Source of the DNA: an uncultured Burkholderiales bacterium
GTDB taxonomy: Bacteria > Pseudomonadota > Gammaproteobacteria > Burkholderiales > REEB80
Direction: 5' to 3'
NCBI GenBank assembly: GCA_964473355.1
Contig: CAYYOS010000001.1
Location: 1-60,492 of the forward strand
DNA: 60,492 nucleotides
Below the pieces are notes generated by a model. The model was not told where the DNA came from and made no database searches. It worked only from the letters and a program-made list of their open reading frames with translations. Below are positions 19,301 to 49,192 of the stretch, piece by piece. A program made the position numbers and the translations under genes. The stretch's first letter is position 1. The number at the start of each line of letters is the position of its first letter.

Positions 19301-20147
19301 CGCGACGCTTGCGGAAGATATGCCGGTACTCGATATCACTGCCGAAAATATTATGTACAACAAAAGAAATCTAGGTGCATTGGAAGTTTTAGCGGTGCCT
19401 CAGAGCAAAGATTGGCACATTGAAAAATTTAAGTTGGCTAACGCGGATGGTGTGATACAAGGAAGCGGCGTTTGGCAAGATTGGCAACCGAAATCCTTAA
19501 CCAAAATAGACGTGCTCATCGAAACCGGCGACCTCGGAAAATTTTTAGCCCGCTGGGGACAACCGGATCGATTGGCGAAAGGCAGCGCAAAACTCAGCGG
19601 GCAGCTTTCCTGGGCAGGCGAACCAATTGCGCTGGATTTTCCGTCGTTGTCGGGGGCGCTAAAGCTGGAAGCCAAAAACGGACGTTTTTTAAAAATTGAG
19701 CCTGGCCTCGGTAAACTCATCGGCCTTTTGAGCCTCCAAGCTTTGCCGCGGCGCATTACATTGGATTTTCGTGACGTCTTTAGCGACGGCTTTTCTTTTG
19801 ATTCGATTGCCGCGAATGTCAGCATTCAACGTGGCGTTGCCAGTAGTAACGATTTTAAAATGCAAGGCCCTGCGGCAAAGGTAGCAATGCAAGGCGAGAC
19901 GGATCTCGCCAAAGAAACCCAAAATCTACGGGTAAAAGTCACGCCACTATTAGCAGAAAGTGTGGCCATGGCGGGTACGCTCATCGGCGGGCCCGTCGTA
20001 GGCTTAGCTACGTACGTCGTGCAGAAAGCACTGCAAAACCCCTTTGACCAAATTGCTGCGTACGAATATGGTGTCACGGGAACTTGGGAAGACCCTAAAG
20101 TGGCTAAGATTCCGCGCACCGCGGAGCCAGTTGCACCGGCGCCTTAA
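16365..20147 (+). CDS. yhdP: YhdP-family (AsmA-like) large envelope protein
   Basis: 1260 aa. N-terminal TM anchor, very long beta-rich body, and a C-terminal block (GLLSLQALPRRITLDFRDVFSDGFSFD...YEYGVTGTWEDPKV) typical of YhdP/TIGR02099. The GTG start at 16365 is uncertain. Confidence 0.8.
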   Translation: MAWWAILSLGFIFAVTVLSLRYWVLPNIESYRVNIANAASRAMGQKVTIERISANWERARPHLKLGGLQIYDKKNRPALFLDNVEATLSWSSLLKWDLRLRTFIVLKPILSVRREADGLIYVAGAVVNGPPGEDSAFGDWLLRQRTIIVKDAVIEWRDELRQAPVLNLHKVNLRLLNRGGRHRFGLTASPPRELSRPLDLRGELYGKTLNDFSKWRGAFYAALDSADMGAWGKWLPYPFEVKKGLGGIRFWLGFNQGTINHAAANLSLLDTELRIRPELPTMEIAKLTGILAWRDLVPGFQVQVKQLVVSGNSLTMPNSNAQIRYVPAQKKMLGSGEIRTTHLSLPPLATLANYLPLEGEVAQSLAKLALQGSVSDFSAQWQGNWRAPQEFSLVGKFNNLGFRSLKQWPGVTNLTGSVEATEKSGSVLLDSRNVVAQAPEIMPEPLQFSQLKGRVNWTGMGPTLQLKIPQLVFANGHMAGQASGNYSSVANTLGSIDVSAKLTRADARYVWHYLPFMIHKDVRDWVKNGLVGGTSNDVKLVIKGNLSRLPFADKKSGLFQVKAKFVNGILDYGPGWPRAENIAGEVVLENEKIDVRIASGHIHNMKLSGVQATIADLVHGNEILLINGEAKGASNDLLKFIVASPVSEWLQGATSNMAATGQGKLLLKLSIPLRHPENHKVTGSYQFIDNHLQDSKQGWPALERLTGVLNFSQDQVYAKDIHAQALGGPVRMNIQSHGNDLQIDLAGIADAQHLSRIYAPSVLPFVQGKAAWQGHVSTRANQATIKIDSDLVGVAVNLPQPLFKAPQEALAMNWESLPAPASAHTMKFNYGNRIAGNVLQAADNRIDRGVIRLGGAAMPSEQPGLWVSGETPYLDLDAWRNVAKRMQAPSGNGQTLTERTSVAGADVTIASLDVFEHRIHNVKLEAKQKDQTWSANISARELTGAISWQPEGRGKVVARLKSFTFPDSDGNKSAATSGTATLAEDMPVLDITAENIMYNKRNLGALEVLAVPQSKDWHIEKFKLANADGVIQGSGVWQDWQPKSLTKIDVLIETGDLGKFLARWGQPDRLAKGSAKLSGQLSWAGEPIALDFPSLSGALKLEAKNGRFLKIEPGLGKLIGLLSLQALPRRITLDFRDVFSDGFSFDSIAANVSIQRGVASSNDFKMQGPAAKVAMQGETDLAKETQNLRVKVTPLLAESVAMAGTLIGGPVVGLATYVVQKALQNPFDQIAAYEYGVTGTWEDPKVAKIPRTAEPVAPAP

Positions 20148-20173
20148 GGGTACTTCTACAATCCAAAATCCCC

Positions 20174-20253
20174 GTCATTCCCGCGTAGGCGGGAATCCAC
20201 AATTTTAAAACAGACATTAAATCAGATGCCTTCCCGCTTTCGCTGGAATGACG
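20174..20253. repeat. pair of inverted REP-like repeat copies (MITE-like arrangement)
   Basis: gtcattcccgcgtaggcgggaatcc (20174-20198) and ttcccgctttcgctggaatgacg (20231-20253, opposite orientation), about 30 bp apart, downstream of yhdP. Confidence 0.6.
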
Positions 20254-20284
20254 AATAATCAGCCGTGCCGTTAATGACCACTAC

Positions 20285-20316
20285 AAAAAAAAGCCCGCAG
20301 TACGCGGGCGTTTTTT
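20285..20316. terminator. bidirectional Rho-independent terminator (yhdP / rpmE)
   Basis: aaaaaaaa-gcccgc-agtac-gcgggc-g-tttttt. A 6-bp GC stem flanked by an A-run and a T-run, lying between two convergent genes. Confidence 0.8.
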
Positions 20317-20335
20317 ATAAACACTAAGATTGGCG

Positions 20336-20542
20336 TTATGATTTCATGCCATACTTTTGCCGGAACTTTTCAACCCGACCGGCGGTATCCACAATTTTTT
20401 GTTTGCCCGTGTAGAAAGGGTGGCAATCGGAACACACTTCAACCGTCAAGGCACGACCCAAGGTCGAACGTGTTTGAAATTTATTACCACAACTGCAGGT
20501 AACGGTAATTTCTTCATACTTGGGATGGAGATCTGTTTTCAT
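20336..20542 (-). CDS. rpmE: 50S ribosomal protein L31
   Basis: [20 protein letters not shown]...[13 protein letters not shown]. Start set to the internal ATG at 20542, because the 10-codon extension in the ORF track is not L31-like. Confidence 0.9.
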
Positions 20543-20703
20543 AAAAGCACCAAGAAATAATGTATAACCCATTATTATCCCGCAATTTTTATGTCAAAGC
20601 AAGAAACTTGTGGTTTCGCAAGAACGGCAGCTAGGACGTGAGCTTAGACGATGCTCGCGTTCCGATGAGAGAAGACTGAGCGCAGGATAAGATTTATTTA
20701 GAG

Positions 20704-20746
20704 TCGACATGTCGAAGGTGTACATGTATGATTATACTATGTACAT
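20704..20746. promoter_or_regulatory. candidate operator palindromes upstream of the first TA module
   Basis: Perfect palindromes tcgacatgtcga (20704-20715), tacatgta (20721-20728) and atgtacat (20739-20746). GAGGGGGA is the ribosome-binding site just before the ATG at 20762. Confidence 0.45.
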
Positions 20747-20761
20747 AAGTTGAGGGGGATC

Positions 20762-21004
20762 ATGAAAAAACTAACCCTAACCACTTTGCGCCAACAAATT
20801 TTTCAGATCGCTGACGAAGTTTTGACTACTGGGCAGCCGGTTAGTATTGAACGCAATGGCAAGATCCTGTTGCTCAGTTCGGCAGTCGAATTAAACAAAT
20901 CGAAAAGTTTGAAATTGAAACGTCGAAAACTAATCACGGGTGACGCTGAGTCGCTACCCACAGCAAAGGCATGGGAATGGCGCGAACCGGAAAATCTGCG
21001 CTAA
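20762..21004 (+). CDS. type II antitoxin (Phd/YefM-like)
   Basis: About 80 aa. The MKKLTLTTLRQQIFQIADEVLTTGQPVSIERNGKILLL pattern is typical of Phd/YefM-type antitoxins. Overlaps a PIN gene. Confidence 0.65.
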   Translation: MKKLTLTTLRQQIFQIADEVLTTGQPVSIERNGKILLLSSAVELNKSKSLKLKRRKLITGDAESLPTAKAWEWREPENLR

Positions 21005-21375
21005 TCCACCTGGACACACATATCGTTTGTTGGCTATACGAAGGCCGCGCGGAATTTCTGACCCCGGCGGCATTGCGCGCTATTGAATCGGGCTTGTTGC
21101 AGGTTTCTCCTGTGGTGCAACTAGAACTGACCTATTTACACGAAATTGGCCGCATTAGCCGGGAGGGCGATTATGTTTTGCAGGCGTTGACCAAAGACAT
21201 CGGCCTGAGTGTGGCTGACGTGTCGTTAGCCCAGGTAATAAAAATAGCCGGTGCGCTAACATGGACGCGCGACCCGTTCGATCGCATGATCGTTGCGCAT
21301 GCTATGGTTGCGAATGCGGCACTGGTGAGTAAAGATCGCCTAATCCGAAAGCATTGCGGCAAGGTAATTTGGTAA
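20971..21375 (+). CDS. vapC: PIN-domain toxin (VapC family)
   Basis: LIHLDTHIVCWLYEG N-terminal acidic motif and C-terminal TRDPFDRMIVAHA...LVSKD...I. The exact start is uncertain (ATG at 20971 or 20977). Confidence 0.7.
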   Translation: MGMARTGKSALIHLDTHIVCWLYEGRAEFLTPAALRAIESGLLQVSPVVQLELTYLHEIGRISREGDYVLQALTKDIGLSVADVSLAQVIKIAGALTWTRDPFDRMIVAHAMVANAALVSKDRLIRKHCGKVIW

Positions 21376-21384
21376 TGCGCCGAT

Positions 21385-21468
21385 AAACCCACTTCATTTC
21401 TGACGCCGGTAGATAAAGATGCGGCTGAGAGTGAACGGTAGATGGATTCTCCGGGAAATAGCGTGCGG
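21385..21468 (-). pseudogene. 84-bp stub of a third DUF2235 toxin C-terminal copy
   Basis: Minus-strand translation is RTLFPGESIYRSLSAASLSTGVRNEVG. It is about 89% nucleotide-identical (by eye) to 22367-22450 and homologous to Rhs residues RGAAVAFPLESIMGRASPAGVTRIERGF. The homology ends 9 bp from the vapC stop. Confidence 0.7.
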
Positions 21469-21475
21469 GTCAAAC

Positions 21476-21994
21476 CTATCGCCATTTATAGACGGCCCAC
21501 TTCATTGAAACGTCATCGTCCTTAAAGGTAAACGTTAGCTGCAACAGTTTGTTTTTAGGATCAGCGTGGACTTCTTGCAGGGCTGCATCGGGGATGACCG
21601 TGAGGTCGATCGTTTTATGGTACCGTTTGCCTTGAGCGAGGAACTGATCGTAACCCGCGTCGACCGTATGTTCACCAAGTCCCGTTAACCACTCAAAACT
21701 TATCGATGGGGGGAATTTTTTAAAGCCATCGGCTCCGACTAAGGCCATTGTTTTTGGACCCCGTTTAGAAACAAACCCTCCATTTCTACGTTCTAAGCTG
21801 CCCCCGCGGTCTAGAGGCGGATAGGTAATGAAGAGAACGTAAACTTCCTGCCCTGTAGACTCTAGATTCATCTCCGTCCCCACCATCGGGCGCTTGGAAG
21901 CAGCGCTGCAGCCGCCTAACGTCATCAGACTAAAGATGCTCACCAGCAAAAGTCTTAATAAGCCATATCGAGACCATAATTCGTTTTTAACCAT
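21476..21994 (-). CDS. lipoprotein, candidate immunity protein for the orphan toxin half
   Basis: 172 aa. Signal peptide with lipobox (SLMTLGG|C). Lies directly downstream of, and overlapping, the orphan toxin fragment. Shares FP..(x)..W..G and L.F.FKDD.V...W.V blocks with the 22733-23341 protein. Confidence 0.5.
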   Translation of the reverse strand: MVKNELWSRYGLLRLLLVSIFSLMTLGGCSAASKRPMVGTEMNLESTGQEVYVLFITYPPLDRGGSLERRNGGFVSKRGPKTMALVGADGFKKFPPSISFEWLTGLGEHTVDAGYDQFLAQGKRYHKTIDLTVIPDAALQEVHADPKNKLLQLTFTFKDDDVSMKWAVYKWR

Positions 21995-22494
21995 GCCGCA
22001 TAACCTTTCATGTCAATCGTGCCCCGTAATACTTTATCGCCGTGGGCGTCCGCCTTTGCCGTGGGATAGGGCTGTAAATACGAGAGCGAATTGCTGTAGT
22101 TCATACCCGCCACGGGTGCCCCTTTTTGGTCGTAGGAAGCGCCGCCCTGATATCTAAACTTGCGGTCACCCGAATCATCGAATCCGCTGCCGATGGCTTT
22201 TGTGTTGCTGTCGTGCCAAATGGGGTTTTTAACTGAAGTATATTCAGAAGGCAATGCTTTGAGGCTTACACCAGCAAATTTCGCTTGCTGATACATCCAG
22301 CTCAAAGCAACATCAGACAAATCGCCCTCCGCGTATCCCCCGCCAATATCGGAATGCGCGCCAATGAAACCCACTTCATTTCTAACGCCGGTAGCTAAAG
22401 ATGCGGCCGAGGGTGAGCGGGAGATGGATTCTCCGGGGAATAGTGTACGGTGTTCATTGACGGCATCCTGCTCAATTGCTGCTAGACGCGAGCA
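21955..22494 (-). pseudogene. orphan C-terminal half of a DUF2235 (Tle1-like) toxin domain, with no N-terminal half and no canonical start
   Basis: The frame is open for 179 codons (CSRLAAIEQDAVNEHRTLFPGESI...GFIGAHSDIGGGYAEGDL...GTIDMKGYAAWLKTNYGLDMAY). It aligns with the last ~172 aa of the Rhs protein (AVALNEYRGAAVAFPLESI...GFLGSHSDIGGGFPDGDL...GTVDMQGYLSWLNSNGYNINMTIQ). It lacks the FDGTGN and GFSRGA blocks. Confidence 0.75.
22367..22450. repeat. 84-bp direct repeat partner of 21385-21468
   Basis: aaacccacttcatttctaacgccggtagctaaagatgcggccgagggtgagcgggagatggattctccggggaatagtgtacgg versus the stub. About 9 mismatches, same orientation, 982 bp apart. Confidence 0.75.
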
Positions 22495-22732
22495 TCATAG
22501 ATGTTGGGTTCCTTGGAGGCGCGCAGCTAGTTTTCTGGGAATCATATGCCCGGCTTGCGCCAGTCAATATCCTTTCGCCACGCTACATCTTCTGGGTTGC
22601 ATTGGCCGCCGGACATGATGGTGTTGAGTAGGCTTGTGCAGAATGGGATTCTTTTCGTCTGTAATTCTGCTGGCAACGGACTCATTGTGATGCAAGCGCG
22701 CTTCTGCATCCTCGCTTATACAAACGACCAAA

Positions 22733-23341
22733 TCACTTTCTAATCCACGCCGGGTTATACCAAGAAGCTTTTTCCAGCGGGCCGTCGGTGCAATTGGGAT
22801 GGGATTGATAAGGACTGGTCTCACATGGAAAGTCACCGCCGTGTAGGGAATAGACCCAGCCCGCCCCGGGGGCTGATTCCTGCACATCCCACGCTAACAG
22901 CACACCATCGTCCTTAATACGGAACTGTAGCCGTATCGTGCCCCTCCCGGATGCGACATATTCAAACACCTCTGTAGGAATTCGGCTTAATACTTCTACC
23001 CTATAATTGCCGGCAATTTTGCCGGTTGTCCAATATAAGCCCGCCGCTTGGTCGGTACCCTCACGCCACGTCACATCCACCCAGCGGGGAAAGGGTGCGT
23101 TGCCTAGGCCAAATATCCCCCCATTTTTTGGGTTTAATAGCGCTGGTCCGAATAAGCGATATCCGGAATCAGAAACTGCCTGAACACCCTCCTTATTAGA
23201 TGCCCCTTTCGCAAGTTCATAGGTAACGACTATACCCCCCGCACGCCGTAGTTGGCGATCTGATTCGGGTTTGCCCGCATGGGCGCCGCCCGCTAACCAC
23301 GCGAATAAACTGACCATAAGCAACACGCCCATCGTATTCAT
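22733..23341 (-). CDS. secreted protein, candidate cognate immunity protein of the Rhs DUF2235 toxin
   Basis: About 202 aa from the ATG at 23341 (a GTG at 23353 is also possible). Sec signal peptide (MNTMGVLLMVSLFAWLAGGAHA|G). Starts 8 bp after the Rhs stop. Paralogous to the 21476-21994 lipoprotein. Confidence 0.5.
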   Translation of the reverse strand: MNTMGVLLMVSLFAWLAGGAHAGKPESDRQLRRAGGIVVTYELAKGASNKEGVQAVSDSGYRLFGPALLNPKNGGIFGLGNAPFPRWVDVTWREGTDQAAGLYWTTGKIAGNYRVEVLSRIPTEVFEYVASGRGTIRLQFRIKDDGVLLAWDVQESAPGAGWVYSLHGGDFPCETSPYQSHPNCTDGPLEKASWYNPAWIRK

Positions 23342-23349
23342 TGTTGTCC

Positions 23350-26300
23350 TCACTGAATTGTCATATTGATGTTGTAGCCATTGCTATTTAGCCAACTCAG
23401 ATAGCCTTGCATATCCACGGTGCCGGAAACGCTATCTCTCGAATTCGGGTTAGGTTTGTAAGCAATAAAGGGTTTGGTATCAGCATAGCTCATGCCAAAG
23501 GTTGTGGCGTGGCGTTGCTTATCGGTAGCGCCGTTCGTATAACGCACAGTACGGTCTTCGCTGGTGGCGGTGGGCCCGCCCGATGGTGCGCCAAAAAATA
23601 AATTGCTGCTCTTGTCGTGGAGTACAGGATTAGAGACAATGGATCTTACTGGGTTAGCCATGTTCACCCCAGCGGTCCTAGCCTGATCGACCATCCAAAT
23701 TAGTGCCACTCTGGCAAGATCGCCGTCGGGAAATCCTCCACCGATATCCGAATGCGAGCCAAGAAATCCTCGCTCGATCCGCGTTACCCCAGCAGGACTA
23801 GCCCTCCCCATGATGGATTCTAGGGGAAATGCCACCGCCGCGCCACGATACTCGTTAAGCGCGACGGCTTGCGCAACATAGCGGAAGTTATTAGGGATGT
23901 TGAGCTGATAGCTGCCGGTGTGGGTGCTTAAGACCGTATCGAATAAACCCATAAAGCGGAAGTTGAGTTTTTGGCATTTGGCAACTTCAATACCGTTTAT
24001 ATCTTTTTCGGTGTAGCTGTACCAGCCGTTCCTGGTTTTGGCCGCGATCCGGTTGGCAAATTCGCGTGCTTCAGCGGCGCCCCGGCTAAACCCCGTGATA
24101 TCGACATCGAAGGCGGTTTCGTCATTCACAGAACTTGAATAATCGCCTAAATACTTAATCATCGCCATAATGCGCGCGGGGCCCGTATAGGCTCTAGCAA
24201 TATCCCCGACACCACCGATATCCCAGGGGGCCGGGCCAATCCCCGTGGCGGGGTCTAAAGTGCCCGGACCCGTGATGTAGAAAGGCTGTCCATCCTGATA
24301 GAGGTCACGAAATTTCACCACATTAGACAACGTAGCATGATTACTTTCATCATTCCCCGTCCCATCAAACGCAAACAATATCAACCCATAGGGATCGATG
24401 TAACTTAAGGGGTTATTGTTGACGTAAGCATAAGCATTCGGGCTGCCGAGTTGTGCTGCTAACTTGCCTAAGGGATCGGGCGTAAGATAGCGACCGGCTT
24501 TGGGATCGTAATAACGCGCGTCGTTGTAATACAATCCGGATTCTTGGTCTTCCCACTGTCCGGGCAAGCGCAGTGCAAGATGGTAGGCGGCAGGCTGTGC
24601 TTGGGCGGGGGCACGGCTTAGCGCGCTGGTTTTAATCAACTTGCCATAGGGCGCATAGTCGGCCTGCCAAAGTGTTTGCCCTTGTGCGTTCGTCGCGGCG
24701 ATCGGTGCACCCAAATGATTTCCATGGACAAAGGCGAGGCGGTCGGCGTCGCCGCTTAATTCCCGCCACATGAGCTGGGCGGTTTGTCTTAAGTTGTGCG
24801 CAAATCCCTCAACCGGCGCCTGCAGTGCTTTAGGCTGTTTCGCATCCAGTGTGGCCACCAGTCGATCGCCCAGCCAGATGTACTGGCGGGTGATCTGTCC
24901 TTGTGTGTTTAGGTCAGCCAAGCGCTGGCGCGCTTCGTTGTAAAGGGTGTATTCCGTTTGTGCTCCACTTTCCTTACTTATTCTTAAGCCCCGGTAGTTG
25001 TACCGGTAGCGAGCAATGTCTTTGCCCTGCTCTCGAATGGCGGTGAGTTGGCCTAAGGCATTCCAGACGTAGTCACGACCCAACGCCGACTGCGTTATCA
25101 ATACATTGCTCTGCGGGTGGTAATTGGTTTTGCGAGTTTGGCCCATTTCATTCACCGGCACGTGTTCTTGCGCTAACACGCGGTTGCCCTGACTATCGTA
25201 GTTGTAGCGCCACACACTAGCGTTGTTAATTCCCGCGCTGCTTTGTGAAACCGGTATCGGTGCCGGCAGAGTGTTGGGGAGTGTGGCTTGTGCGGCTATC
25301 AACTGGTTTTGGCTGTCGTAGGCATAGGCTTGGGTGGCCTGAATACCGTGACCTTGTTGTTTTTGTAAAAGCACGTTGCCCGCTTCGTCGTAGAGCAATC
25401 GGGCATCAAACAGAGCTTGTCGGTTGGCAGGGATACCGAGTGCGCCGGGAAATTTATTTGGAGCTTGCGCATGTGCTTCCGGTAAGACGGCACCCAAGAG
25501 TTCGCGTAGGTAATAAGGGCTAGAGGAGGGCGGCGATACGGCCGCCATTTTCAGTGGCTGCGCGCTTATGTCTCTGGGCTGTGTGTAGACCACGCGTGCC
25601 AGTACACCTGCTTTGCTTCGTTGCCATTGGCCTTGGACGCCATTTCCGTAAGTCGTGCTGCGTAGACCAATTAAATCGCGTTCCAAGTCTTTAACAATGG
25701 TTTGCCGACCCCAGCCGAAGAAGGCCAAGGGGCGCATTTGCTGGCTCAAAGCGATGATCTGGCCTTGCCCGTTGCGCTCGTAAATTACTTTAGTCCCGTC
25801 GGGCAAGCTCTCGCTGGCTAGGGCGCCATCAGCCGCGTAAGCGTAGCGCGTGACATGGGTAGCCTCAGCGCCATTGACAAGTTTGAGGGTAACAGTTTTT
25901 ATGACGGGCTGTCCGCGTTCGTTATAATGGATACGTTCGGACTGATTGGGATGTTTGACTTCGATGAGGCGGCCGTGCTCATAGCGCCAAGTCGTCGTTT
26001 GCGCTTCGCCGGTTTTTGGCAGGACGGTGTAGCGGACGCGTTGGCCGGCTAGGTCATAGGCATAGTGGTGTACATCCCCTAGAGTATTGGCCTGTTCCAC
26101 TAATTGATTAGCCGCGTTATAACGGTTGATGATGCTGCCATGACTCACGCTGATCGTGGCCACAACCCGGCCAAAGTCATCCATTATGGTTTGAAATGAC
26201 GACGTGTTAGGAACGTGGTTGGTGGGAGATTTGTCATAGGCCACTTGACGTACGAAGCCTGTATTGTCTACTACCTGTACCAAGCGGTTGAGGTGGTCAT

Positions 26301-28632
26301 AACGGTAATGTTCGGATTGTGCGAAGCTCTTCGTGCTGACTGTGCTGCTTAGGAGATGGCCTTCCGTGTCGTACTGCGCGCGTTTCAGGATACCCAGCGC
26401 CTCGGCCTGCCACAGCAGGCGACCACTCACGTCGAAGGCCTGCCGGGTTTGCGGGCGATAGGTTTGGTAAGCTTTATCCTTGCTCCCATTGCCGTTATTG
26501 AAGTCACCCATCCCTGTCTCAATTCTATTGCCTAAGGCATCGTATTTAAAACTATGTACTACGGGTTGGATGCCCGCTTGCGCCCAATTCGCACCGCTGC
26601 TAATGAGGCGGATGAGTTGGCTTCTGGCGTCATAGTCAAAAATGGTTTTGAAGCCCTGAGCATTACTCACTGCCGCAGTACGCCCCACCTCATCGTATTG
26701 CATCGTATTAGTAAAGCCACCGGGGGTGGTCATGGTGGTGATAAAACTCCCCCGCCCATCCCACTCATACCTCGTAATATCCGAATCCTTGGGACTATTC
26801 GTCGGTCCATTCTTAAGCGGCCCATCCACTTCCACCAAGAGACTTCGACGATTGATAAGATGATAGCGGTAGCGGGTGGTGCGAGTGATGGGCGTCGCCT
26901 CTCCATCGCTGGTGCTCACCGCGTCGCCACGCTGGCGAAGTGAGGCCTGGTAAGCCGCCGCGCCTTCTTGTTTGGCATGGGTGGGGGTTAAGGCGTGAGG
27001 CCCGCGGTTTAATTGCGATGGCAGGCCGTTCGTTGAGGCACGCACGTGTTGTAACCCCATGACCGGTTTAAATTCTGGCAGTACTGGCGCATAGCCACTT
27101 TCAGTAATCTCTGTTGGCTGGCCCCGCTCATTATAGGTAATCCGGGTGGTGACTTCTTTACCCGGTATCACACTCGGCCGGGCAATGAGAATGGGACTTA
27201 AGTTAAGTCTTATCAAGCTATCCTGGGTGTCGGATTTATTTGCTTGCGCGGGTGCATGCATCGCATACTCAACGCGCACTTGCCGTTGGGGTTTGCCGGG
27301 TTTGCCATTGGTGTACGCTAGACGGCTGATGGAAAGTGTTCTGCCATATCGATCCAATTCCATTATGTTCGAGTGTATGGCTTGGCCTTGGGTGTCCAGT
27401 TTCGTCGTCTTAATTAACCGCCCCAGATCATCATAGCCATAGCGCACGTTGACTTCGCCGCAGGAGGCGCAACCCACGCCTGCTACTTCTATTAAGCGAT
27501 ATTCGTTGCCGATTACGCCGTGCTTATAGTTGGTCTTTTGTCCCAAGCTATTGGTTAATAGCGTGGTCGCCGTTTGGCCTTCTATCACACTGTTGCTGCT
27601 ATATTGCAGACGCACCTGCTCAATACCTGCTTGTCCCGGTTTTGGTTTTTCTCCCCGGTAACTTAGCACAGCCCGACCTTGATGGTCATAGTCCCAAGTA
27701 CTCAAACGCTGCGTAGTAGGCTTACTGTTGCCGGTGCTCTGAAGGCTTATTCCCGTTAACAGCGTGGGCTGGTTTACGTCTTCGTAATGGTAATGACGGC
27801 GAACGCCGGGGGCGTTCGGTAACCCAGGGAAAGTGACTGCAGTCAGGTTACCCACTTGGGCGCCATCGTTGGGATGTTGATAAACAAAGCGTCCGACGGG
27901 ACTAGTTATGGCGGTAATGCCACTAAACCCAGTGGCGTTGTTGGGGGCATATTCCAAGCGTAACTGGCGGCCTTGGGGATCCGTGACCTTGACGAGCAGC
28001 CCCTGGGGGTTGCGCGTTAAGTGTAAGGCTTCACCGCTGGGGGCAACAATTTGGGTGAGCTTGCCTTGGTGGTTAAACGTCAAGCGCCGCCCATTTGCCC
28101 AGTCCCACGTATATTCTTCCCCATAAGCGCTTTTGCGAATGTGTATTTGCCCATGGGCGGGATCTTGACTGGCGCATTGATTCGGATTTTTAGGATCGCG
28201 GATAAAGATAAGGCGCGTGCCATCGGCTTGCATCACTTGTAAGGTATTGCGAACAGCATAAAGATCAGTTTCATAGGATAGCCGCCAACCCCGGCCGATG
28301 CTGCCCATCGCACCATTAGGCTTAGCGTAGGCGCTGTTGTAGTGGCGAATAATCTCTAAGCCCAGCACACCGGGCAGCGGGGGCATATCCACTTCTTGCT
28401 GGTATTTGTTCCCGCTCACGACATTAATCGGGTTGCCCGCACCCAGATTGGTTTGACTTTGATTGCCAAGGCTTGCAGGACCCGTGCCCTCGCAGGGTGC
28501 GCCGCCCGGACTCGGTCCGCAGGTGGCGGGGGTAGCTTGCGCTAAGGCAGCACCGGGGGTGACTAAGCTGGTAATTAAGAGGAGTGTGTTGAGAAGACGG
28601 CGTGACATAGACGTTAACTTAAGTTTCTTCAT
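23350..28632 (-). CDS. Rhs/YD-repeat polymorphic toxin with N-terminal Sec signal peptide and C-terminal DUF2235 lipase-like domain
   Basis: Start set to the ATG at 28632 (MKKLKLTSMSRRLLNTLLLITSLVTPGAALA|QA). GNPINVVSGNKYQQEVD plug motif, dozens of YD repeats (YDxxGR/YxYDxxGN), and the Rhs core end HLGAPIAATNAQGQTLWQADYAPYG...GLYYNDARYYDPKAGRYLTPDP...NNPLSYIDPYGL. Confidence 0.9.
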   Translation of the reverse strand: MKKLKLTSMSRRLLNTLLLITSLVTPGAALAQATPATCGPSPGGAPCEGTGPASLGNQSQTNLGAGNPINVVSGNKYQQEVDMPPLPGVLGLEIIRHYNSAYAKPNGAMGSIGRGWRLSYETDLYAVRNTLQVMQADGTRLIFIRDPKNPNQCASQDPAHGQIHIRKSAYGEEYTWDWANGRRLTFNHQGKLTQIVAPSGEALHLTRNPQGLLVKVTDPQGRQLRLEYAPNNATGFSGITAITSPVGRFVYQHPNDGAQVGNLTAVTFPGLPNAPGVRRHYHYEDVNQPTLLTGISLQSTGNSKPTTQRLSTWDYDHQGRAVLSYRGEKPKPGQAGIEQVRLQYSSNSVIEGQTATTLLTNSLGQKTNYKHGVIGNEYRLIEVAGVGCASCGEVNVRYGYDDLGRLIKTTKLDTQGQAIHSNIMELDRYGRTLSISRLAYTNGKPGKPQRQVRVEYAMHAPAQANKSDTQDSLIRLNLSPILIARPSVIPGKEVTTRITYNERGQPTEITESGYAPVLPEFKPVMGLQHVRASTNGLPSQLNRGPHALTPTHAKQEGAAAYQASLRQRGDAVSTSDGEATPITRTTRYRYHLINRRSLLVEVDGPLKNGPTNSPKDSDITRYEWDGRGSFITTMTTPGGFTNTMQYDEVGRTAAVSNAQGFKTIFDYDARSQLIRLISSGANWAQAGIQPVVHSFKYDALGNRIETGMGDFNNGNGSKDKAYQTYRPQTRQAFDVSGRLLWQAEALGILKRAQYDTEGHLLSSTVSTKSFAQSEHYRYDHLNRLVQVVDNTGFVRQVAYDKSPTNHVPNTSSFQTIMDDFGRVVATISVSHGSIINRYNAANQLVEQANTLGDVHHYAYDLAGQRVRYTVLPKTGEAQTTTWRYEHGRLIEVKHPNQSERIHYNERGQPVIKTVTLKLVNGAEATHVTRYAYAADGALASESLPDGTKVIYERNGQGQIIALSQQMRPLAFFGWGRQTIVKDLERDLIGLRSTTYGNGVQGQWQRSKAGVLARVVYTQPRDISAQPLKMAAVSPPSSSPYYLRELLGAVLPEAHAQAPNKFPGALGIPANRQALFDARLLYDEAGNVLLQKQQGHGIQATQAYAYDSQNQLIAAQATLPNTLPAPIPVSQSSAGINNASVWRYNYDSQGNRVLAQEHVPVNEMGQTRKTNYHPQSNVLITQSALGRDYVWNALGQLTAIREQGKDIARYRYNYRGLRISKESGAQTEYTLYNEARQRLADLNTQGQITRQYIWLGDRLVATLDAKQPKALQAPVEGFAHNLRQTAQLMWRELSGDADRLAFVHGNHLGAPIAATNAQGQTLWQADYAPYGKLIKTSALSRAPAQAQPAAYHLALRLPGQWEDQESGLYYNDARYYDPKAGRYLTPDPLGKLAAQLGSPNAYAYVNNNPLSYIDPYGLILFAFDGTGNDESNHATLSNVVKFRDLYQDGQPFYITGPGTLDPATGIGPAPWDIGGVGDIARAYTGPARIMAMIKYLGDYSSSVNDETAFDVDITGFSRGAAEAREFANRIAAKTRNGWYSYTEKDINGIEVAKCQKLNFRFMGLFDTVLSTHTGSYQLNIPNNFRYVAQAVALNEYRGAAVAFPLESIMGRASPAGVTRIERGFLGSHSDIGGGFPDGDLARVALIWMVDQARTAGVNMANPVRSIVSNPVLHDKSSNLFFGAPSGGPTATSEDRTVRYTNGATDKQRHATTFGMSYADTKPFIAYKPNPNSRDSVSGTVDMQGYLSWLNSNGYNINMTIQ
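23353..24381 (-). other. C-terminal toxin domain of the Rhs protein: DUF2235 / Tle1-like alpha/beta-hydrolase (343 aa after DPYGL)
   Basis: ILFAFDGTGND..., DITGFSRGAAEAREF (GxSxG-type nucleophile elbow), GLFDTV and GSHSDIGGGF are hallmark blocks of DUF2235. The DPYGL cleavage motif is at 24382-24396. Confidence 0.75.
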
Positions 28633-29498
28633 GAAGATTTGCCTGGCTCCAGGGAGCGAAGCGCGGTACTTTTTTGGGTCGGTAGACAACAATAATTATT
28701 CCCGCAGCCCGGATCGCAGGAGGCATCAAATTGACTGCAGCCCGGTGGCCGGGGTGGCGCAGGTCCTGCCTCCCCGGGCTCAGGCTCGGGATTTCCCGGT
28801 CCCCCGGGGCTGCCTGTCGTTCCCGGATCATCTTGATTGGCACCGGGGTTAGAGCGGTAGGCGGCGTGTTCATAAGCCGGACTTTGCATCCTAACTACGG
28901 CATGCGCCACAATGGGGATGCGGCCGGCTTGGTAATAAGCGCGGTGCTCGGGGTTTAAGGTGCCAAGCACTGTAAGGAAGGGTCTTGCGATGGAAAAAGG
29001 CTTATAGCCATAGATCACCCGAATCTTAAGGAGATTCGCGTCTTGAATATTAACGCCGGAGTGATTTGAGACTGAAGCGGGTCGAAAGCTTAAGTTGTCA
29101 TTGGGGATTTGCCGGATATTGTTCTCAGTAATGGCGTAATCGGCAAAGGCTTCTTTAGTGGGCGAGAGGATTTGAATGGTGGCGTGAGTGGATAAGTCTG
29201 CTTGTGCTTTAATAAAAGAAGTCAGGATGGCACTACTGGTTTTACCACCCCCGTATAAGGGAATAAGACCACGAGCTAAACCTTTTTGTATGGGTTCAAG
29301 CCGAGCATTCTCGAGGGCACCGGCTCTAGCCGCTTCAAACGTGGCGTAATTAAGTAGACTCTTACCCATCATCACAAAGCCTGCTTGGATCATGGCTAAA
29401 GTCAGACCGAGGATTATGGGGATGACGATGACGAATTCGACTAAGGAGGCGCCGAGGAGATTTTTACTGGCGTTACTTGTTATTCGAGTTCTCCCCAT
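28629..29498 (-). CDS. TadE/TadG-like pseudopilin-type protein with Pro/Gly-rich, Cys-rich C-terminal tail
   Basis: N-terminus NLLG|ASLVEFVIVIPIILGL (G at -1, E at +5, hydrophobic helix) followed by FEAARAG, as in the TadE-like domain. The tail is PGGPGNPEPEPGEAGPAPPRPPGCSQFDASCDPGCGNNYCC. The stop TGA overlaps the Rhs ATG (ATGA at 28629-28632). Confidence 0.6.
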   Translation of the reverse strand: MGRTRITSNASKNLLGASLVEFVIVIPIILGLTLAMIQAGFVMMGKSLLNYATFEAARAGALENARLEPIQKGLARGLIPLYGGGKTSSAILTSFIKAQADLSTHATIQILSPTKEAFADYAITENNIRQIPNDNLSFRPASVSNHSGVNIQDANLLKIRVIYGYKPFSIARPFLTVLGTLNPEHRAYYQAGRIPIVAHAVVRMQSPAYEHAAYRSNPGANQDDPGTTGSPGGPGNPEPEPGEAGPAPPRPPGCSQFDASCDPGCGNNYCCLPTQKSTALRSLEPGKSS

Positions 29499-29710: not shown

Positions 29711-30145
29711 CTATGTGCCCGCAGAAAAACACTGCATTTCCAGCAGTTTGGCTGCCTTGTTAAGGCGCGCATCAAAGCTGGCGAAAAAGATAGGCAAGCC
29801 GGAAATGCGACGAACCTCGTAAGCGGCAGCTAGCTGCACGCTGTCGTAGCCGCGCAACGCAAAGGTATCGGCATATTCTCCAGCCCGCTCAACCAGTGCT
29901 TGATTCAATTCCGTAACCACTAAGTGTGGCCAATCTTTTGCCAGCGCCGCCTTCGCTTGCTCGATAATAGCAGCATCTTTAGCCACTTCGCGTGCGCGCC
30001 GCGATAATGCCGCATGTGCTTCCGCCCAGGCAATACGGCATACCGCTACTGCCTCGGCTTCTGATACATGCTGCTTCAATTCCTTGCTTCCCGTCTCAAT
30101 AATATAAAGTTTAATAAGCGCAGAGGTATCGCAAAACAATATCAC
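29711..30145 (-). CDS. vapC: PIN-domain toxin (VapC family)
   Basis: 144 aa. MILFCDTSALIKLY N-terminal Asp motif and YDSVQLAAA in the C-terminal half. 4-nt overlap with the upstream antitoxin. Confidence 0.75.
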   Translation of the reverse strand: MILFCDTSALIKLYIIETGSKELKQHVSEAEAVAVCRIAWAEAHAALSRRAREVAKDAAIIEQAKAALAKDWPHLVVTELNQALVERAGEYADTFALRGYDSVQLAAAYEVRRISGLPIFFASFDARLNKAAKLLEMQCFSAGT

Positions 30146-30405
30146 CCGCGGTCTTCCAGCACCATTGCAGAAATTGTCTTGCCGCCTGCCTGCAACCCAA
30201 GCGCGGCGCCTTTAGGTTTACCCCCTTGCCAGGTTGCCATGCCGGCTGCCAATAAACGTGATAACCCCGCGCTATCGGTTTGAGGTACACCAATAACCCG
30301 AGCCACCACTTTGCGATGCGAGGTTAATTCCAGCATCTTCCCGGATTGCGTCTCGCGGACATACTGCGCCAAATGAGACTTGAATTCTTGCATAGAAACT
30401 TTCAT
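30142..30405 (-). CDS. type II antitoxin (Phd/YefM-like)
   Basis: 87 aa. MKVSMQEFKSHLAQYVRETQSGKMLELTSHRKVVARVIGV. Confidence 0.65.
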   Translation of the reverse strand: MKVSMQEFKSHLAQYVRETQSGKMLELTSHRKVVARVIGVPQTDSAGLSRLLAAGMATWQGGKPKGAALGLQAGGKTISAMVLEDRG

Positions 30406-30573: not shown

Positions 30574-31833
30574 TTAGCCTCTACGCATAGAATCAAAGAA
30601 GTCATTATTATTTTTAGTGGCTTTGATTTTATCCAACAAAAATTCCATGGCTTCGAGATCGTCCATGGGATAGAGCAAGCGACGCAGCACCCAAATTTTT
30701 TGTAGATTATCGGGCTTGATTAACAGCTCTTCTTTGCGGGTGCCGGAGCGGTTGACGTTGATCGCAGGGTACAAGCGTTTTTCGGCCATACGACGGTCAA
30801 GGTGAATTTCCATATTGCCTGTGCCTTTAAATTCTTCATAGATCACGTCGTCCATGCGCGAGCCGGTTTCTACCAAAGCAGTGGCGATAATGGTCAATGA
30901 CCCACCTTCTTCAATATTACGCGCTGCGCCAAAAAATCGTTTGGGCCGCTGCAGCGCATTCGCGTCCACACCACCCGTGAGCACTTTTCCTGAAGCCGGA
31001 ACAACGGTATTATATGCGCGCGCCAAGCGGGTGATGGAATCCAACAAGATCACCACATCTTTTTTATGCTCAACTAAACGCTTGGCCTTTTCTAACACCA
31101 TTTCGGCGACTTGCACGTGGCGCGTGGCGGGCTCATCAAACGTAGAGGAGACGACTTCCCCTCGAACGGAACGTATCATTTCCGTGACTTCTTCCGGGCG
31201 CTCGTCAATCAACAAGACGATTAAATAGCATTCCGGATAATTCGCCGCAACGGAATGGGCAATGTGCTGCAACATAACCGTCTTGCCGCTTTTAGGCGAA
31301 GCGACCAACAATCCGCGCTGTCCTTTACCAATCGGCGCAATGATATCGATAACGCGCCCGGTAATGTTTTCTTCTGCCTTAATATCACGCTCTAAAATGA
31401 GCGCATCAGTTGGGAATAGAGGAGTTAAATTCTCAAAAAGAATCTTATGTTTGGAATTTTCCGGGGGTTCCCCGTTAACGCTATCGACTTTAACCAGCGC
31501 AAAGTAGCGTTCGCCGTCTTTAGGCGTGCGGATCTCACCTTGAATGGTATCGCCGGTATGCAGGTTAAAGCGCCGGATTTGGCTGGGGCTTACATAAATA
31601 TCGTCGGGGCCCGCCAAATATGAGGTGTCTGGGGAGCGCAAAAATCCGAAACCATCTTGCAGGACTTCAAGCGTGCCTTCGCCGAATATGCTTTCACCCT
31701 TACGCGCCTGGTTTTTAAGTAAGGCAAAAATTAAATCTTGCTTGCGCAGCCGGTTCGCACCTTCGATTTCGTTGGATATTGCCATATCCACCAGCTCGGT
31801 GACGTGTAGTTCTTTTAACTCAGATAAGTGCAT
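30574..31833 (-). CDS. rho: transcription termination factor Rho
   Basis: [18 protein letters not shown]..., FGFLR RNA-binding domain, Walker A ASPKSGKT. Start set to the ATG at 31833. Confidence 0.95.
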
Positions 31834-31952
31834 TACAATCGTGGACAACAAACTCGTATGGGAAAAAAGGAAGTAGGAGAGAAACTGACGCCTAGCTCAA
31901 ATGGCGCGTTATTATTAGACTACGCCAAAAGATTATTTATAGAATAGTGGAT

Positions 31953-47338: not shown

Positions 47339-49093
47339 TTATTGTCTGGCCGAAAAACCTTTCCAAATTAACCAAGCCAACAGCGCTATCATGGCAATCA
47401 GGGCCAACCCAGGCATAACTTTGACCCTAACAAAAGGCATAAAGCGGCGACTCAGCCAGGAGTTGCGCAAGCGCCACGCCAAGTCGAGCAAGAACGACTC
47501 GAATGCGCCAAACTTCACCTGTGCCTGTTGGCGATGATTTTCAAAAACGTAACGCCAGCTGGCGTTACTGACATTGCAAATGCGTCTGTCCAGCCGCTTA
47601 GTAACAGCGACCAGCACGCCGAAAATCACGGCAAAAAGGAACAGCCACCGCGGGTCTGAGCGCAGGCCTTCCAGCGCACCATTAAAGATGTCCGGCAACA
47701 GCCATCCGAGTCCCGCGAAAATCCAGCCTACTATATACAACTCGCCGCTACGCGCTGGCGCGGGCTGCGAATCGAGAAGGTAAAGGACGTAGAGCCCGAA
47801 GCCAGTGGTAGTCAGCGTTAGAATATACAACCAGCGCTTAATCCAAACGAGATCCCAGATTTTACCCAAGAGCTTCGCACGATTGGGATCTAAGCTGCGT
47901 TCGGCCGCATAAGAATTAATAAGGCTAGCTTCAAACCCGGTGGCATCGTTTTCATCTGCCTTTTCCAATATAAAGTCGTCCGGAAGATTGAAGGGCGCGT
48001 AACCCTCCGTGGCACGCTGTATGCGATCAAATACGCTGACGTGAATCTTCGCCTGGGCGATGCCATGCTCTCGGCAAATTTTTTTGATGTCGCGCGGCAG
48101 GTAACGATAGTAGGCGGCTAAGCCGGCGCGGGAATCATACAGTTTGCTATGGATATCCGCCTCGCACTGGTACCCATCCCACATCTCGCGAACAAATTCT
48201 ACGCCCAGATTTTTGGCTTTCGCCATCATCCAGTTCAGGGGCACCAACGCCATCTCATTTTTGGGATAGCCGCCACCAACATTGGCATGCCCGCCGGCGA
48301 ACCACACCTGCTCGATTGTCTGCGCCGTCAAGGGTCGGCTTTGGTCCCATAACACGGGGTGAAAGGTCTGGCGCTGATCGTCAATGGACAAGGCGTGGCA
48401 GCCGTGTTGAACCAGCCTGTGCAGGGTCTTATCGAATATCGCAACCCGCTTAAAAAGATCCAGACCCTCGCGTAACTCATCAAACGGCACGCCTACCGCG
48501 TTGACCGTGTCCCAGACGCCGATGAATTTGATCGGGATATCGGGTATGACGTGTTCTTGCTGGCGAAATTTTTTGGTCTCCGCCGGCTCTTCCGCTGGCT
48601 TCGTGGCCTTGTTCACACTATATTGCGCTTGGTCTTCAGGTGAGCCGCTGTGGGGCTTAGGCTGACGGGTACCGCGCTCAAAGCACTTAACGAAGGCGTC
48701 ATAGGCCTCGTCGATGCGCGTGTCCAGCTCCTGCTCGGAAGCACATTTTGTTCGGTCGACGAGCCCGCTACGGCAAAGCATGCCCGCAACCATGCGTACC
48801 GTGTGCGCACCGCGGCTAAAACCGAAAAAGAAAATATCGTCGCCGGGTTCGTACTGAACGACAATGAATTTGTAGAGGCGTTTAATGTTTCGCTTCAGCC
48901 CCCACCCAAAGGCCCCGCCCAATAATTTAAACAACACGAAGGACCGGGTGCCGACGCCATCGTCGTAAAAGCTAACCTGCGCGCGGGAGTGATGAAGATC
49001 AATGGCTTTATACAGCCGCCAGACATTCGTCCCAAAACCTTTGCCGCCACTATTCCCCGTCCCGTCCGAACACAATATGATATTTTTTGACAT
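47339..49093 (-). CDS. DUF2235 (Tle1-like alpha/beta-hydrolase) protein with C-terminal four-helix membrane anchor
   Basis: Start set to the ATG at 49093 (AGGGAGG RBS). ILCSDGTGNSG, FFFGFSRGAHTVR, GVWDTV and AGGHANVGGGY blocks. The C-terminal ~170 aa contains four hydrophobic helices. Confidence 0.75.
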   Translation of the reverse strand: MSKNIILCSDGTGNSGGKGFGTNVWRLYKAIDLHHSRAQVSFYDDGVGTRSFVLFKLLGGAFGWGLKRNIKRLYKFIVVQYEPGDDIFFFGFSRGAHTVRMVAGMLCRSGLVDRTKCASEQELDTRIDEAYDAFVKCFERGTRQPKPHSGSPEDQAQYSVNKATKPAEEPAETKKFRQQEHVIPDIPIKFIGVWDTVNAVGVPFDELREGLDLFKRVAIFDKTLHRLVQHGCHALSIDDQRQTFHPVLWDQSRPLTAQTIEQVWFAGGHANVGGGYPKNEMALVPLNWMMAKAKNLGVEFVREMWDGYQCEADIHSKLYDSRAGLAAYYRYLPRDIKKICREHGIAQAKIHVSVFDRIQRATEGYAPFNLPDDFILEKADENDATGFEASLINSYAAERSLDPNRAKLLGKIWDLVWIKRWLYILTLTTTGFGLYVLYLLDSQPAPARSGELYIVGWIFAGLGWLLPDIFNGALEGLRSDPRWLFLFAVIFGVLVAVTKRLDRRICNVSNASWRYVFENHRQQAQVKFGAFESFLLDLAWRLRNSWLSRRFMPFVRVKVMPGLALIAMIALLAWLIWKGFSARQ

Positions 49094-49165
49094 TGGCTGT
49101 CCTCCCTTTTCGGCGTCTTTTACGGAGTCGCCTACAAGCGTTACTATTCTAGAGTTACCCCGGCT

Positions 49166-49192
49166 CGTCATTCGCTCGAGAGGCGGGAATCC
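49166..49192. repeat. REP-like palindromic repeat copy
   Basis: cgtcattcgctcgagaggcgggaatcc. A further degenerate half-copy (attccagcgagaatcacgg) lies near 49261-49279. Confidence 0.5.

Follow-up and report, generated by a model that had tools for sequence, protein, structure and literature searches.

Partial toxin domains and immunity genes behind an Rhs gene with a predicted Tle1-like lipase tip: probable remains of sequential displacement within one lipase family

Arrays of orphan toxin and immunity genes are interpreted as traces of past warfare between bacteria and as stores of alternative weapons, and by the usual rule exchange takes place where the delivery scaffold meets the toxin. 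Displacement of the C-terminal part of Rhs proteins was described by Jackson et al. (2009, PMC2935791), who proposed that it involves circular intermediates and homologous recombination. In Vibrio cholerae, displaced type VI secretion system (T6SS) effectors whose immunity genes were kept were described by Kirchberger et al. (2017, PMC5361080), with homology-facilitated illegitimate recombination as the proposed mechanism. A survey by Zhang et al. (2012, PMC3482391) places Tox-AB hydrolase1 (DUF2235) tips on RHS toxins, for example in Thauera, and includes GxSxG/GxHxD in its list of motifs. Here we describe an array of partial toxin domains and immunity genes in a 60,492-nucleotide (nt) stretch of DNA from an uncultured Burkholderiales bacterium (GenBank assembly GCA_964473355.1, contig CAYYOS010000001.1, positions 1–60,492; called the window below), where it follows a full-length Rhs toxin gene. 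All genes of the array (the Rhs gene, immX, orphan Y, immY, and the stub) are on the minus strand, and coordinates refer to the window. The features are as follows.

23350–28692, minus strand: full-length Rhs toxin gene, a 1780-codon open reading frame (ORF) from TTG
23353–24390, minus strand: expressed tip X, a predicted Tle1-like (DUF2235) alpha/beta-hydrolase lipase domain of 346 amino acids (Pfam PF09994, AlphaFold2, Foldseek)
22733–23341, minus strand: immX, immunity gene (ORF; probable start ATG at 23341 behind GAGGA)
21955–22473, minus strand: orphan Y, a toxin fragment that runs from AVNEHR through the C-terminal 172 codons of a Tle1-like domain
22358–22450, minus strand: upstream copy of a direct repeat, formed by the R block of orphan Y (RTLFPGESISRSPSAASLATGVRNEVGFIGA)
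21476–21994, minus strand: immY, lipoprotein immunity gene encoding 172 amino acids with an LGGC lipobox (ORF; AAAGG upstream of ATG)
21377–21468, minus strand: stub, downstream copy of the direct repeat, formed by the R block of a Z-like third cassette that is cut short on both sides

This array is probably the trailing end of an Rhs polymorphic-toxin locus that was shaped by sequential displacement of toxin tips and then eroded by deletion. Orphan Y begins inside the enzyme. The frame is open from 22494, with toxin homology only from 22473 (AVNEHR), and its translation (22494–21958) matched residues 187–353 of a 356-residue tip query at 39% identity (69/176, E = 3e-32, BLASTP). A 296-position hidden Markov model (HMM) of the tip was run on six-frame translations of all fetched loci, and its landmarks are GFSRGA (positions 47–52), LFDTV (95–99), NEHR (125–128), HSDIGGG (163–169), NPxxHD (203–209), and GTVDM (272–276). 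Orphan Y corresponds to HMM positions 123–294 (E = 1.1e-60) and to only positions 221–287 of the 287 in the Pfam profile PF09994. The motifs that carry the Ser and the Asp (GFSRGA and LFDTV) are absent, so the fragment does not hold a complete toxin domain. It also lacks a canonical start codon, with no ATG to open it, and the GTG at 22374 gives a 139-residue ORF (22374–21955), which is P0001 in our protein collection, of NCBI source. When the whole tip was compared by tblastn with 20000–23400, only the match to the C-terminal half was obtained, and no decayed N-terminal half was found upstream of orphan Y.

Directly behind this fragment, immY overlaps its end by 40 nt, and orthologues of immY always follow Y fragments in the related metagenome contigs L002–L007 (71–72% amino acid identity). 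The products of immY and immX are distant relatives (25% identity, E = 0.003). Orphan Y has the layout of an orphan cassette, a startless 3′ toxin piece downstream of the full gene in the same orientation and followed by its own immunity gene, and it is without any Rhs core and without a 5′ homology arm common with the expressed gene. A preliminary description of this DNA had stated that the orphan frame matches only the C-terminal part of the tip and lacks the N-terminal motif blocks and that the cassette begins inside the enzyme and carries an overlapping lipoprotein gene of its own (21994–21476); the alignments, the lipobox, and the overlap agree with it on all of these points.

The expressed gene has the marks of an Rhs polymorphic toxin, that is, RHS/YD repeats with a core and a PxxxxDPxGL border with a variable C-terminal toxin. 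The 1780-residue product matched the Pfam families RHS_repeat (9.7e-37), DUF6531 (5.3e-18), RHS core (6.7e-07), and PF09994 (5.6e-16). In the translation, the PxxxxDPxGL motif that closes the Rhs shell (NNNPLSYIDPYGL) is followed directly by ILFAFDGTGN of the lipase domain. Tip X matched PF09994 with an E value of 5.4e-18 and contains both GFSRG and GSHSD; its motifs are GFSRGA, LFDTV, NEYR, GSHSDIGGG, and NPVLHD, and Gly-211, His-213, and Asp-215 are invariant in the tip alignment. The AlphaFold2 model of tip X (predicted local distance difference test 82.5; predicted template modeling score (pTM) 0.87) found its best Foldseek matches in Tle1 (4O5P, E = 2e-10), TleB (9J3F), and enteroaggregative Escherichia coli Tle1 (6SKI/6SJL), with a probability of 1.00. 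From its sequence and model, tip X is predicted to be a Tle1-like phospholipase that is delivered by the expressed Rhs gene, with the immX product protecting against it. Orthologues of immX lie directly after the X tip in L003–L007 (about 80% amino acid identity). The window copy encodes a signal peptide and no lipobox Cys: it reads …FAWLAGGAHAGK without cysteine (23260–23341, minus strand), whereas the L003–L007 orthologues have the lipobox …YLMGCAHAGK, so that the immX product may have switched from a lipoprotein to a soluble periplasmic protein.

The stub repeats the start of orphan Y. Positions 21385–21468 and 22367–22450 are identical at 75 of 84 sites with a start-to-start spacing of 982, and when one 1-nt gap is allowed the repeat is 93 nt long (21377–21468 versus 22358–22450) at 88% identity (blastn E = 1.5e-28 within the window). 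In ungapped register, the equivalent block of the expressed gene is identical to the two copies at only 24/84 and 20/84 sites. These values agree with the preliminary description, in which direct repeats of about 89% identity bracket a 982-bp unit and the expressed gene is far more diverged in DNA. Six of the nine differences between the stub and orphan Y are synonymous (binomial p = 0.01), which indicates that both R blocks were coding while they diverged and did not simply decay in place.

A protein search with the orphan fragment gave several short relatives, the contigs of which were then fetched. One of these, metagenome contig L002, carries in order a shorter Y remnant, immY, a complete cassette Z (176 amino acids, from LSTHTGSY), and a 169-residue immZ. 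The stub is 76% identical to the R block of Z (L002 1351–1443), the stretch comprising the Y tail and immY is 72% identical between the two sequences, and the stub and Z occupy the same place, directly after immY. Since L002 holds a complete third cassette at the position of the stub, the stub is a relic of such a cassette that was cut at both ends, and the direct repeat is, by this comparison, the conserved R block common to the successive cassettes Y and Z-like. In alignment A1, L002 has about 110 nt separating the NEHR codons from the immY stop that the window lacks, and the homology of the stub runs as far as the GAH codons, which leaves 2 nt before the stop of an oppositely oriented PIN gene. 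The Z-like cassette would have been shortened by about 110 nt at its 5′ end and would retain nothing 3′ of GAH, beside the following VapBC-like module.

20750–21375, plus strand: Phd/YefM-PIN (VapBC-like) pair (Pfam PIN, 4.4e-09; PhdYeFM, 4.2e-05), abutting the truncated end of the array

Five further metagenome contigs (L003–L007) have the X tip, immX, a Y fragment, and immY in that order and are 72–77% identical to the window in nucleotides. Heterologous immunity genes or their relics stand behind one complete effector in the window, and the cassettes are arranged differently in L002, L003, and L086, as in a displacement array. The ratio of nonsynonymous to synonymous substitution rates (dN/dS) is 0.07–0.13 for immY, 0.10–0.12 for the X tip, and 0.10–0.18 for immX, values by which immY, an intact gene, is judged to be under purifying selection. 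Identity between L003 and L007 is unequal along the locus (X tip, 98.5%; immX, 94.5%; Y tail, 89.1%), showing that these loci are mosaics. As a separate observation, a 190-residue lipoprotein gene, a third and unrelated immunity gene, takes the place of Z behind immY in the closest relatives (L003 3148–3720), with no toxin fragment before it; its product shares 29% identity (E = 1.5e-10) with the immunity protein that belongs to another toxin, L045_2246.

The supposed 240-nt spacer that separates orphan Y from immX (22494–22733) is not empty and holds the 3′ end of another immunity gene, preceded by a possible toxin piece.

22542–22625, minus strand: immW relic, an immunity gene remnant (last 32 codons and stop only)
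22636–22716, minus strand: tentative, heavily decayed toxin fragment (…EDAEARLHHNESVASRITDEKNPILHK), similar to the QA..AGV…NPxLHD stretch at about HMM 186–207

By blastx, the immW relic is 75% identical over 32 amino acids to residues 167–198 of the 199-residue immunity protein beside toxin L083_8172 from a Thiobacillus metagenome-assembled genome (MAG) (E = 3.7e-14). Its region is 82% identical over 96 nt to L093/L094, at the same position, and 78% identical to L083. For 22636–22716, several family members align in one register, each weakly (E = 0.002–0.05 in a tiny search space), and the segment corresponds in position to where the orphan of L003 begins; we tentatively regard it as a decayed toxin piece of the W cassette. 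With the immW relic, the array keeps at least four generations: X (expressed), the W relic, Y, and the Z stub. The preliminary description had counted at least three successive generations, and the intact third cassette in L002 and the immW relic bear out that several are recorded.

A different origin for such arrays would be amplification of immunity genes, in which tandem duplication in situ is selected for the extra immunity copies and a 3′ piece of the toxin is carried along only because the left end of the duplication chanced to lie within the toxin gene. Tandem units of a tail and an immunity gene do occur in this family with periods of 920–1450 nt (three copies at 88% in L033, 84% in L011, 80% in L008, and 99.3% in L001), locus L053 has two tandem immX-like genes, and tandem arrays of immunity paralogues are known from other systems (PMC9484751). 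Yet in the window the X and Y proteins share 39% identity, immX and immY share 25%, and nucleotide similarity is lacking, which marks them as different imported types and not as local duplicates. In addition, the Y type also exists as a whole domain in another genome (L086), and the copies in L033 and L011 have dS values of 0.24–0.66, old for duplication in situ. We regard amplification as a very unlikely source of the window array. Divergence before capture was the argument that Kirchberger et al. (PMC5361080) used against in situ duplication.

The left end of the Y cassette differs from locus to locus. A second protein search, for which the N-terminal half of the tip was the query, found P0033, a whole-domain Y-type protein to which orphan Y is 76–81% identical in amino acids over the R, M, and T segments. 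P0033, on contig L086, is itself an orphan: its sequence opens with the first motif, (V)DGTGN, and an immZ-like gene immediately precedes it. The 5′ end of the Y cassette is at HMM position 2 in L086, 123 in the window, 186–197 in L003–L007, and 230 in L002, and these four different starts demonstrate that the left end is not fixed. In L003–L007 the spacer after immX is homologous to that of the window for about 40 nt, after which toxin sequence starts at about HMM 186, the position of the decayed W piece in the window; the simplest reading is that this form would have arisen by a further deletion.

Partial toxin domains are found in many loci of this family. A scan of GTDB (one genome per species, the window's own genome not being among the representatives) with the tip alignment as the query gave 78 loci, mostly from Betaproteobacteria (Undibacterium, Massilia, Thauera, Azoarcus, Comamonas, Thiobacillus, and others), the best of which is 68% identical to X. 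The survey was based on the 63 of these loci in which the tip is full and the downstream sequence is 1.5 kb or longer. Truncated toxin tails lacking their 5′ part are present in 14 of the 63 species-representative loci, with starts at HMM 164–178, 196–203, 229–243, and 263–272, and three more occur in the metagenome loci L087, L088, and L090. At seven junctions in genome loci that were read base by base, the tail starts 5–40 nt past the stop of the preceding immunity gene, so these truncated ends are real and not alignment artifacts. Many tails form tandem units with an immunity gene at 75–90% nucleotide identity and periods of 920–1000 nt (L033 with three copies, L011, and L008). Altogether there are 21 intradomain junctions between HMM 100 and 272. 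The alignments indicate that partial-domain orphans are common in the family and that their joints are variable; a fixed joint common to independent cassettes, as the preliminary description would imply, is contradicted by these scattered positions and by the four starts of one cassette. A core-anchored orphan also occurs in the family (L045, with about 0.85–0.88 kb of Rhs core repeated at 96%), and the presence of both kinds fits one general displacement process with variable joints.

Two other loci were noted alongside this survey. In Pelomonas margarita (L053, positions 311–2214; outside the count of 21 junctions), an X-like orphan begins at THTGSY (HMM 101) behind sequence unrelated to immunity genes and is followed by the two tandem immX-like genes. 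An identical 75-nt junction between an immunity gene end and an orphan start is present in Azoarcus taiwanensis (L010, 4165–4240) and in a MAG binned as Opitutaceae (L013, 4111–4186), with tails that differ after it, which suggests lateral transfer or mis-binning.

Recombination within the lipase domain is also seen between toxins of the family. Cassette Z and P0033 are identical at 29/30 positions of the J block (LSTHTG..NEHR) and at 30/38 of the R block, and then at 15/38 and 30/78 (Fisher p = 9e-11), or 97% in J and 79% in R up to HSDIGGG against 39% in M and 38% in T after it. This sharp drop identifies cassette Z as a mosaic, and its M segment is 76% identical to another lineage, P0039. 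The J+R block is 89.7% identical in nucleotides between L086-Y and L002-Z, as compared with 82.9% in their Y tail/immY regions. A Moraxella MAG (L001, GCA_030538375.1, 3049–6302) carries, behind an Rhs-Tle1 gene with its immunity gene, a second unit of a C-terminal half and an immunity gene. This tandem duplication (99.3% over 1717 nt, period 1444) starts about 20 codons before the NENR motif, and a third partial copy, the first 273 nt of which are 95.6% identical before it diverges, precedes an integrase-bearing element. The R blocks of L001 are 95.6–99.3% identical, a pattern that unequal crossing-over may have produced, with the expressed R block pairing with a downstream stub, or that may be an assembly artifact. 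Finally, paralogues in Comamonas are 98% identical in the core, 83–95% over the first ∼240 nt of the toxin domain, and 44–65% thereafter. Taken together, these alignments argue that intradomain recombination is real in this lipase family.

The preliminary description went further and proposed a dedicated half-domain switch in which the nucleophile-bearing N-terminal half is constant and the C-terminal half with its immunity gene is exchangeable. In the form weighed here, the J/R block (LSTHTG…NEHR…HSDIGGG) would be the homology arm by which orphans are brought into the expressed gene. Such a switch would account for the break in Z at HSDIGGG with its P0039-like M segment, for the higher identity of the J+R block between L086-Y and L002-Z, for the start of the L001 unit just before NENR, for the divergence of the Comamonas paralogues after the first ∼240 nt of the domain, and for joints at HMM 100–123 that occur independently in the window, L002, L001, and L053. 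The tail is also the fastest-evolving part (among the 40 most discordant full-length pairs listed, 0.65–0.98 for the N segment versus 0.28–0.71 for the tail), and orphan tails have dN/dS well below 1.

Against such a switch, the joint is not fixed, as the four starts of the Y cassette and the 21 scattered junctions show, and the sequences that would have to recombine share little. The longest identical run between the expressed tip and the orphan is 10 nt (11 when the whole Rhs gene is used), and for the main tip and immX (22733–24420) the strongest local nucleotide alignment with the orphan region covers 52 nt at 77%; with at most 10–11 identical nucleotides in a row, orphan Y cannot be swapped in by homologous recombination. 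Even the repeats of Y and the stub share only 17 identical nucleotides in a row. Nor is the N-terminal half constant: the one attached to a Y-type tail in P0033 is 56% identical to that of X, and none of 3238 full-length pairs combines an N segment of at least 80% with a tail of at most 55%. Reverse chimeras, with a conserved tail and a divergent N segment, were likewise absent among the 3238 full-length toxin pairs. A protein search with the N-terminal half of X and scans of GTDB genomes and JGI metagenomes found no case of this half joined to an alternative C-terminal half, the best matches being 63–79% identical and thus too distant for a comparison of strains.

Apparent breaks at HMM 130 and 185–191, in Verminephrobacter and Thauera, were rejected as junctions of a constant and a variable part, since they are short variable loops inside otherwise similar genes. 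Most ends of high-identity blastn matches fall at the canonical core/tip border, and only the Comamonas breaks (HMM 76–78) looked real.

The predicted structure points the same way. In the model of tip X, which is a single compact fold (pTM as above), the window cut (at about residue 177) would fall right after the strand at 169–177 and before that at 203–209, placing the Ser elbow (about residue 102) and LFDTV on one side and His-213/Asp-215 on the other. In the standard alpha/beta-hydrolase topology, the strands bearing these motifs belong to one sheet. A subdomain boundary at the breakpoint, which the preliminary description had put forward as a point to check, is not visible for this cut, which separates Ser and Asp from His; only the commoner class of starts at HMM 196–203 lies immediately beyond where the Pfam catalytic profile ends. 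Of the half-domain proposal, what stands is that the orphan starts inside the enzyme and that the family recombines inside the domain (Z and L001), and what falls is the constant N-terminal half and the defined joint. We consider a dedicated switch unlikely.

A broader form of the idea is that in betaproteobacterial Rhs-Tle1-like loci the polymorphic unit is often a C-terminal toxin segment with its immunity gene and that the motif blocks LFDTV/LSTHTG, NEHR-HSDIGGG, and NPxxHD act as crossover points, in a natural form of family shuffling. Silent tails would then be constrained through repeated exchange with expressed genes across the population, and the array in the window would be a fossil of exchanges between the Y and Z lineages from before the unrelated X tip took over. 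This proposal is possible but doubtful, and if it were true, these loci would be a natural system for studying exchange of the toxin-immunity interface inside a single fold.

In two Thauera loci that are about 100% identical otherwise (L061 8235 and L064 2485), two short patches differ, one at +525..615 nt of the toxin (the M loop, about HMM 185–200) and one at +1290..1335 nt in the immunity gene. These patches are a possible co-varying contact between toxin and immunity protein. In the family, similarity of toxin segments and similarity of immunity proteins gave Spearman coefficients of 0.34–0.48 for all segments, which did not tell the segments apart.

The possibility that the orphan fragment itself functions, either because the 139-residue GTG product (22374–21955) is made or because its translation couples immY expression, would be in line with the 172 uninterrupted homologous codons, the 40-nt overlap with the start of immY, a dN/dS below 1, and the entry of the 139-residue ORF as P0001. 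The GTG, however, is not preceded by a Shine-Dalgarno sequence, and the product would have neither the Ser and Asp motifs nor a secretion signal. Moreover, relatives retain very different lengths, from 28 to about 290 codons, and translational coupling would not constrain amino acid changes. We consider a function for the fragment highly improbable, more so than any other explanation weighed here. Fragments of this type get annotated as small "DUF2235 proteins."

Sequential displacement followed by deletion is the reading that we prefer. A tip of the Y/Z lineage would once have been carried by the Rhs gene, and Y and Z would have exchanged tails via their common J+R block. Modules W and then X would have joined the gene at its 3′ end by recombination, and at each step the older 3′ end would have moved downstream together with its immunity gene, as in the displacement models of Jackson et al. 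and Kirchberger et al.; later deletions would have taken most of W and of Z. The joints would lie inside the enzyme because the successive tips belong to one homologous lipase family that shares conserved blocks within the toxin domain (LFDTV/LSTHTG, NEHR…HSDIGGG, NPxxHD, and GTVDM..WL); insertion joints and deletions would fall there and not at the core/tip border. We infer this order of events and this mechanism from the comparisons given above. The old toxin pieces would be catalytically dead, promoterless, and unexpressed passengers, and immY would most plausibly have been kept as protection against neighbors that still use a Y-type toxin.

Several results weigh against this history. The fragments do not look neutral: the Y tail has a dN/dS of 0.21 between L003 and L007 (dN 0.068, dS 0.324, 95 codons), and orphan versus expressed tails give 0.08–0.14 in L033 and 0.26 in L011 (dS 0.24–0.66). 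The simplest reading of these low values is that most of the divergence would have accumulated while the pieces sat in working genes of other lineages, before capture, and occasional re-expression fits them equally. Junctions cluster at HMM 100–106, 196–203, and 263–272, which pure random erosion does not predict, and none of the 21 lies at HMM 9–99 (p about 2e-4 under uniformity). With regard to immY expression, a scan of 20600–23500 for promoters and terminators gave counts at the chance level. In addition, the closest relatives (63% for the N-terminal half, in JGI metagenomes, and 68% for the whole tip, in GTDB) are too distant to prove the order of events.

The surroundings of the array were also inspected. 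The Rhs island lies between rpmE (20336–20572) and rho (30574–31851) and is flanked by two Phd/YefM-PIN pairs in opposite orientation (20750–21375, plus strand; 29711–30405, minus strand). A TadE-like gene (PF07811, 4e-11; 28629–29498, minus strand) overlaps the Rhs ORF at its TTG-defined start, and the N terminus of the Rhs protein has a signal-peptide-like stretch (MKKLKLTSMSRRLLNTLLLITSLVTPGAALAQA) in addition to DUF6531. These two features are hints of an export route other than a T6SS, and no T6SS gene turned up in the scanned ORFs of the window. A stand-alone Tle1-like protein of 610 residues, matching the whole PF09994 profile (E = 1.4e-75), is encoded at 47339–49171 on the minus strand, 24 kb from the Rhs locus and among housekeeping genes.

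At this locus and in its relatives, where successive toxins are homologous, the joints have shifted to positions within the enzyme, and partial, catalytically dead tails accumulate next to intact immunity genes. An orphan cannot be assumed to be re-armable. The tails and the two variable loops that co-vary with immunity genes indicate where the specificity of Tle1-like immunity may lie.

Displacement arrays are already known, as are DUF2235 tips on RHS toxins. Like the arrays of Jackson et al. (PMC2935791), the window has a full Rhs gene followed by silent 3′ ends in the same orientation with small downstream genes, older tips having been shunted downstream; unlike the window array, theirs consist of partial core with whole, nonhomologous tips, whereas here core is absent, the domains are partial, and the tips belong to one lipase family. 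The V. cholerae arrays (PMC5361080) likewise retain ancestral immunity genes and include one case of an old effector 3′ end that was shifted back, but they are T6SS auxiliary clusters that have no Rhs gene, and their remnants are mentioned in passing and are not mapped within the enzyme. Orphan Rhs/CdiA C-terminal modules (Poole et al., 2011, PMC3150448; Koskiniemi et al., 2014, PMC3967940), the mechanism of which is summarized in PMC5361080, are similar in having a silent toxin 3′ piece with an immunity gene downstream and have a common 5′ block that permits recombination in principle; those orphans share upstream sequence and encode a complete toxin, whereas the orphan studied here shares at most 10–11 identical nucleotides in a row with the expressed gene and lacks the catalytic Ser and Asp. 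The survey of DUF2235 tips (PMC3482391), in its accessible part, treats the domain as one cassette, and the predicted fold of tip X matches that of the Tle1 phospholipase effectors (4O5P and 6SJL). The literature searched gave no description of partial-domain Rhs-DUF2235 orphans or of intradomain mosaics, which is no proof that none exists. What sets this locus and its relatives apart is that successive tips are homologous, with junctions, mosaics, and duplications inside the enzyme and arrays made of core-less partial domains.

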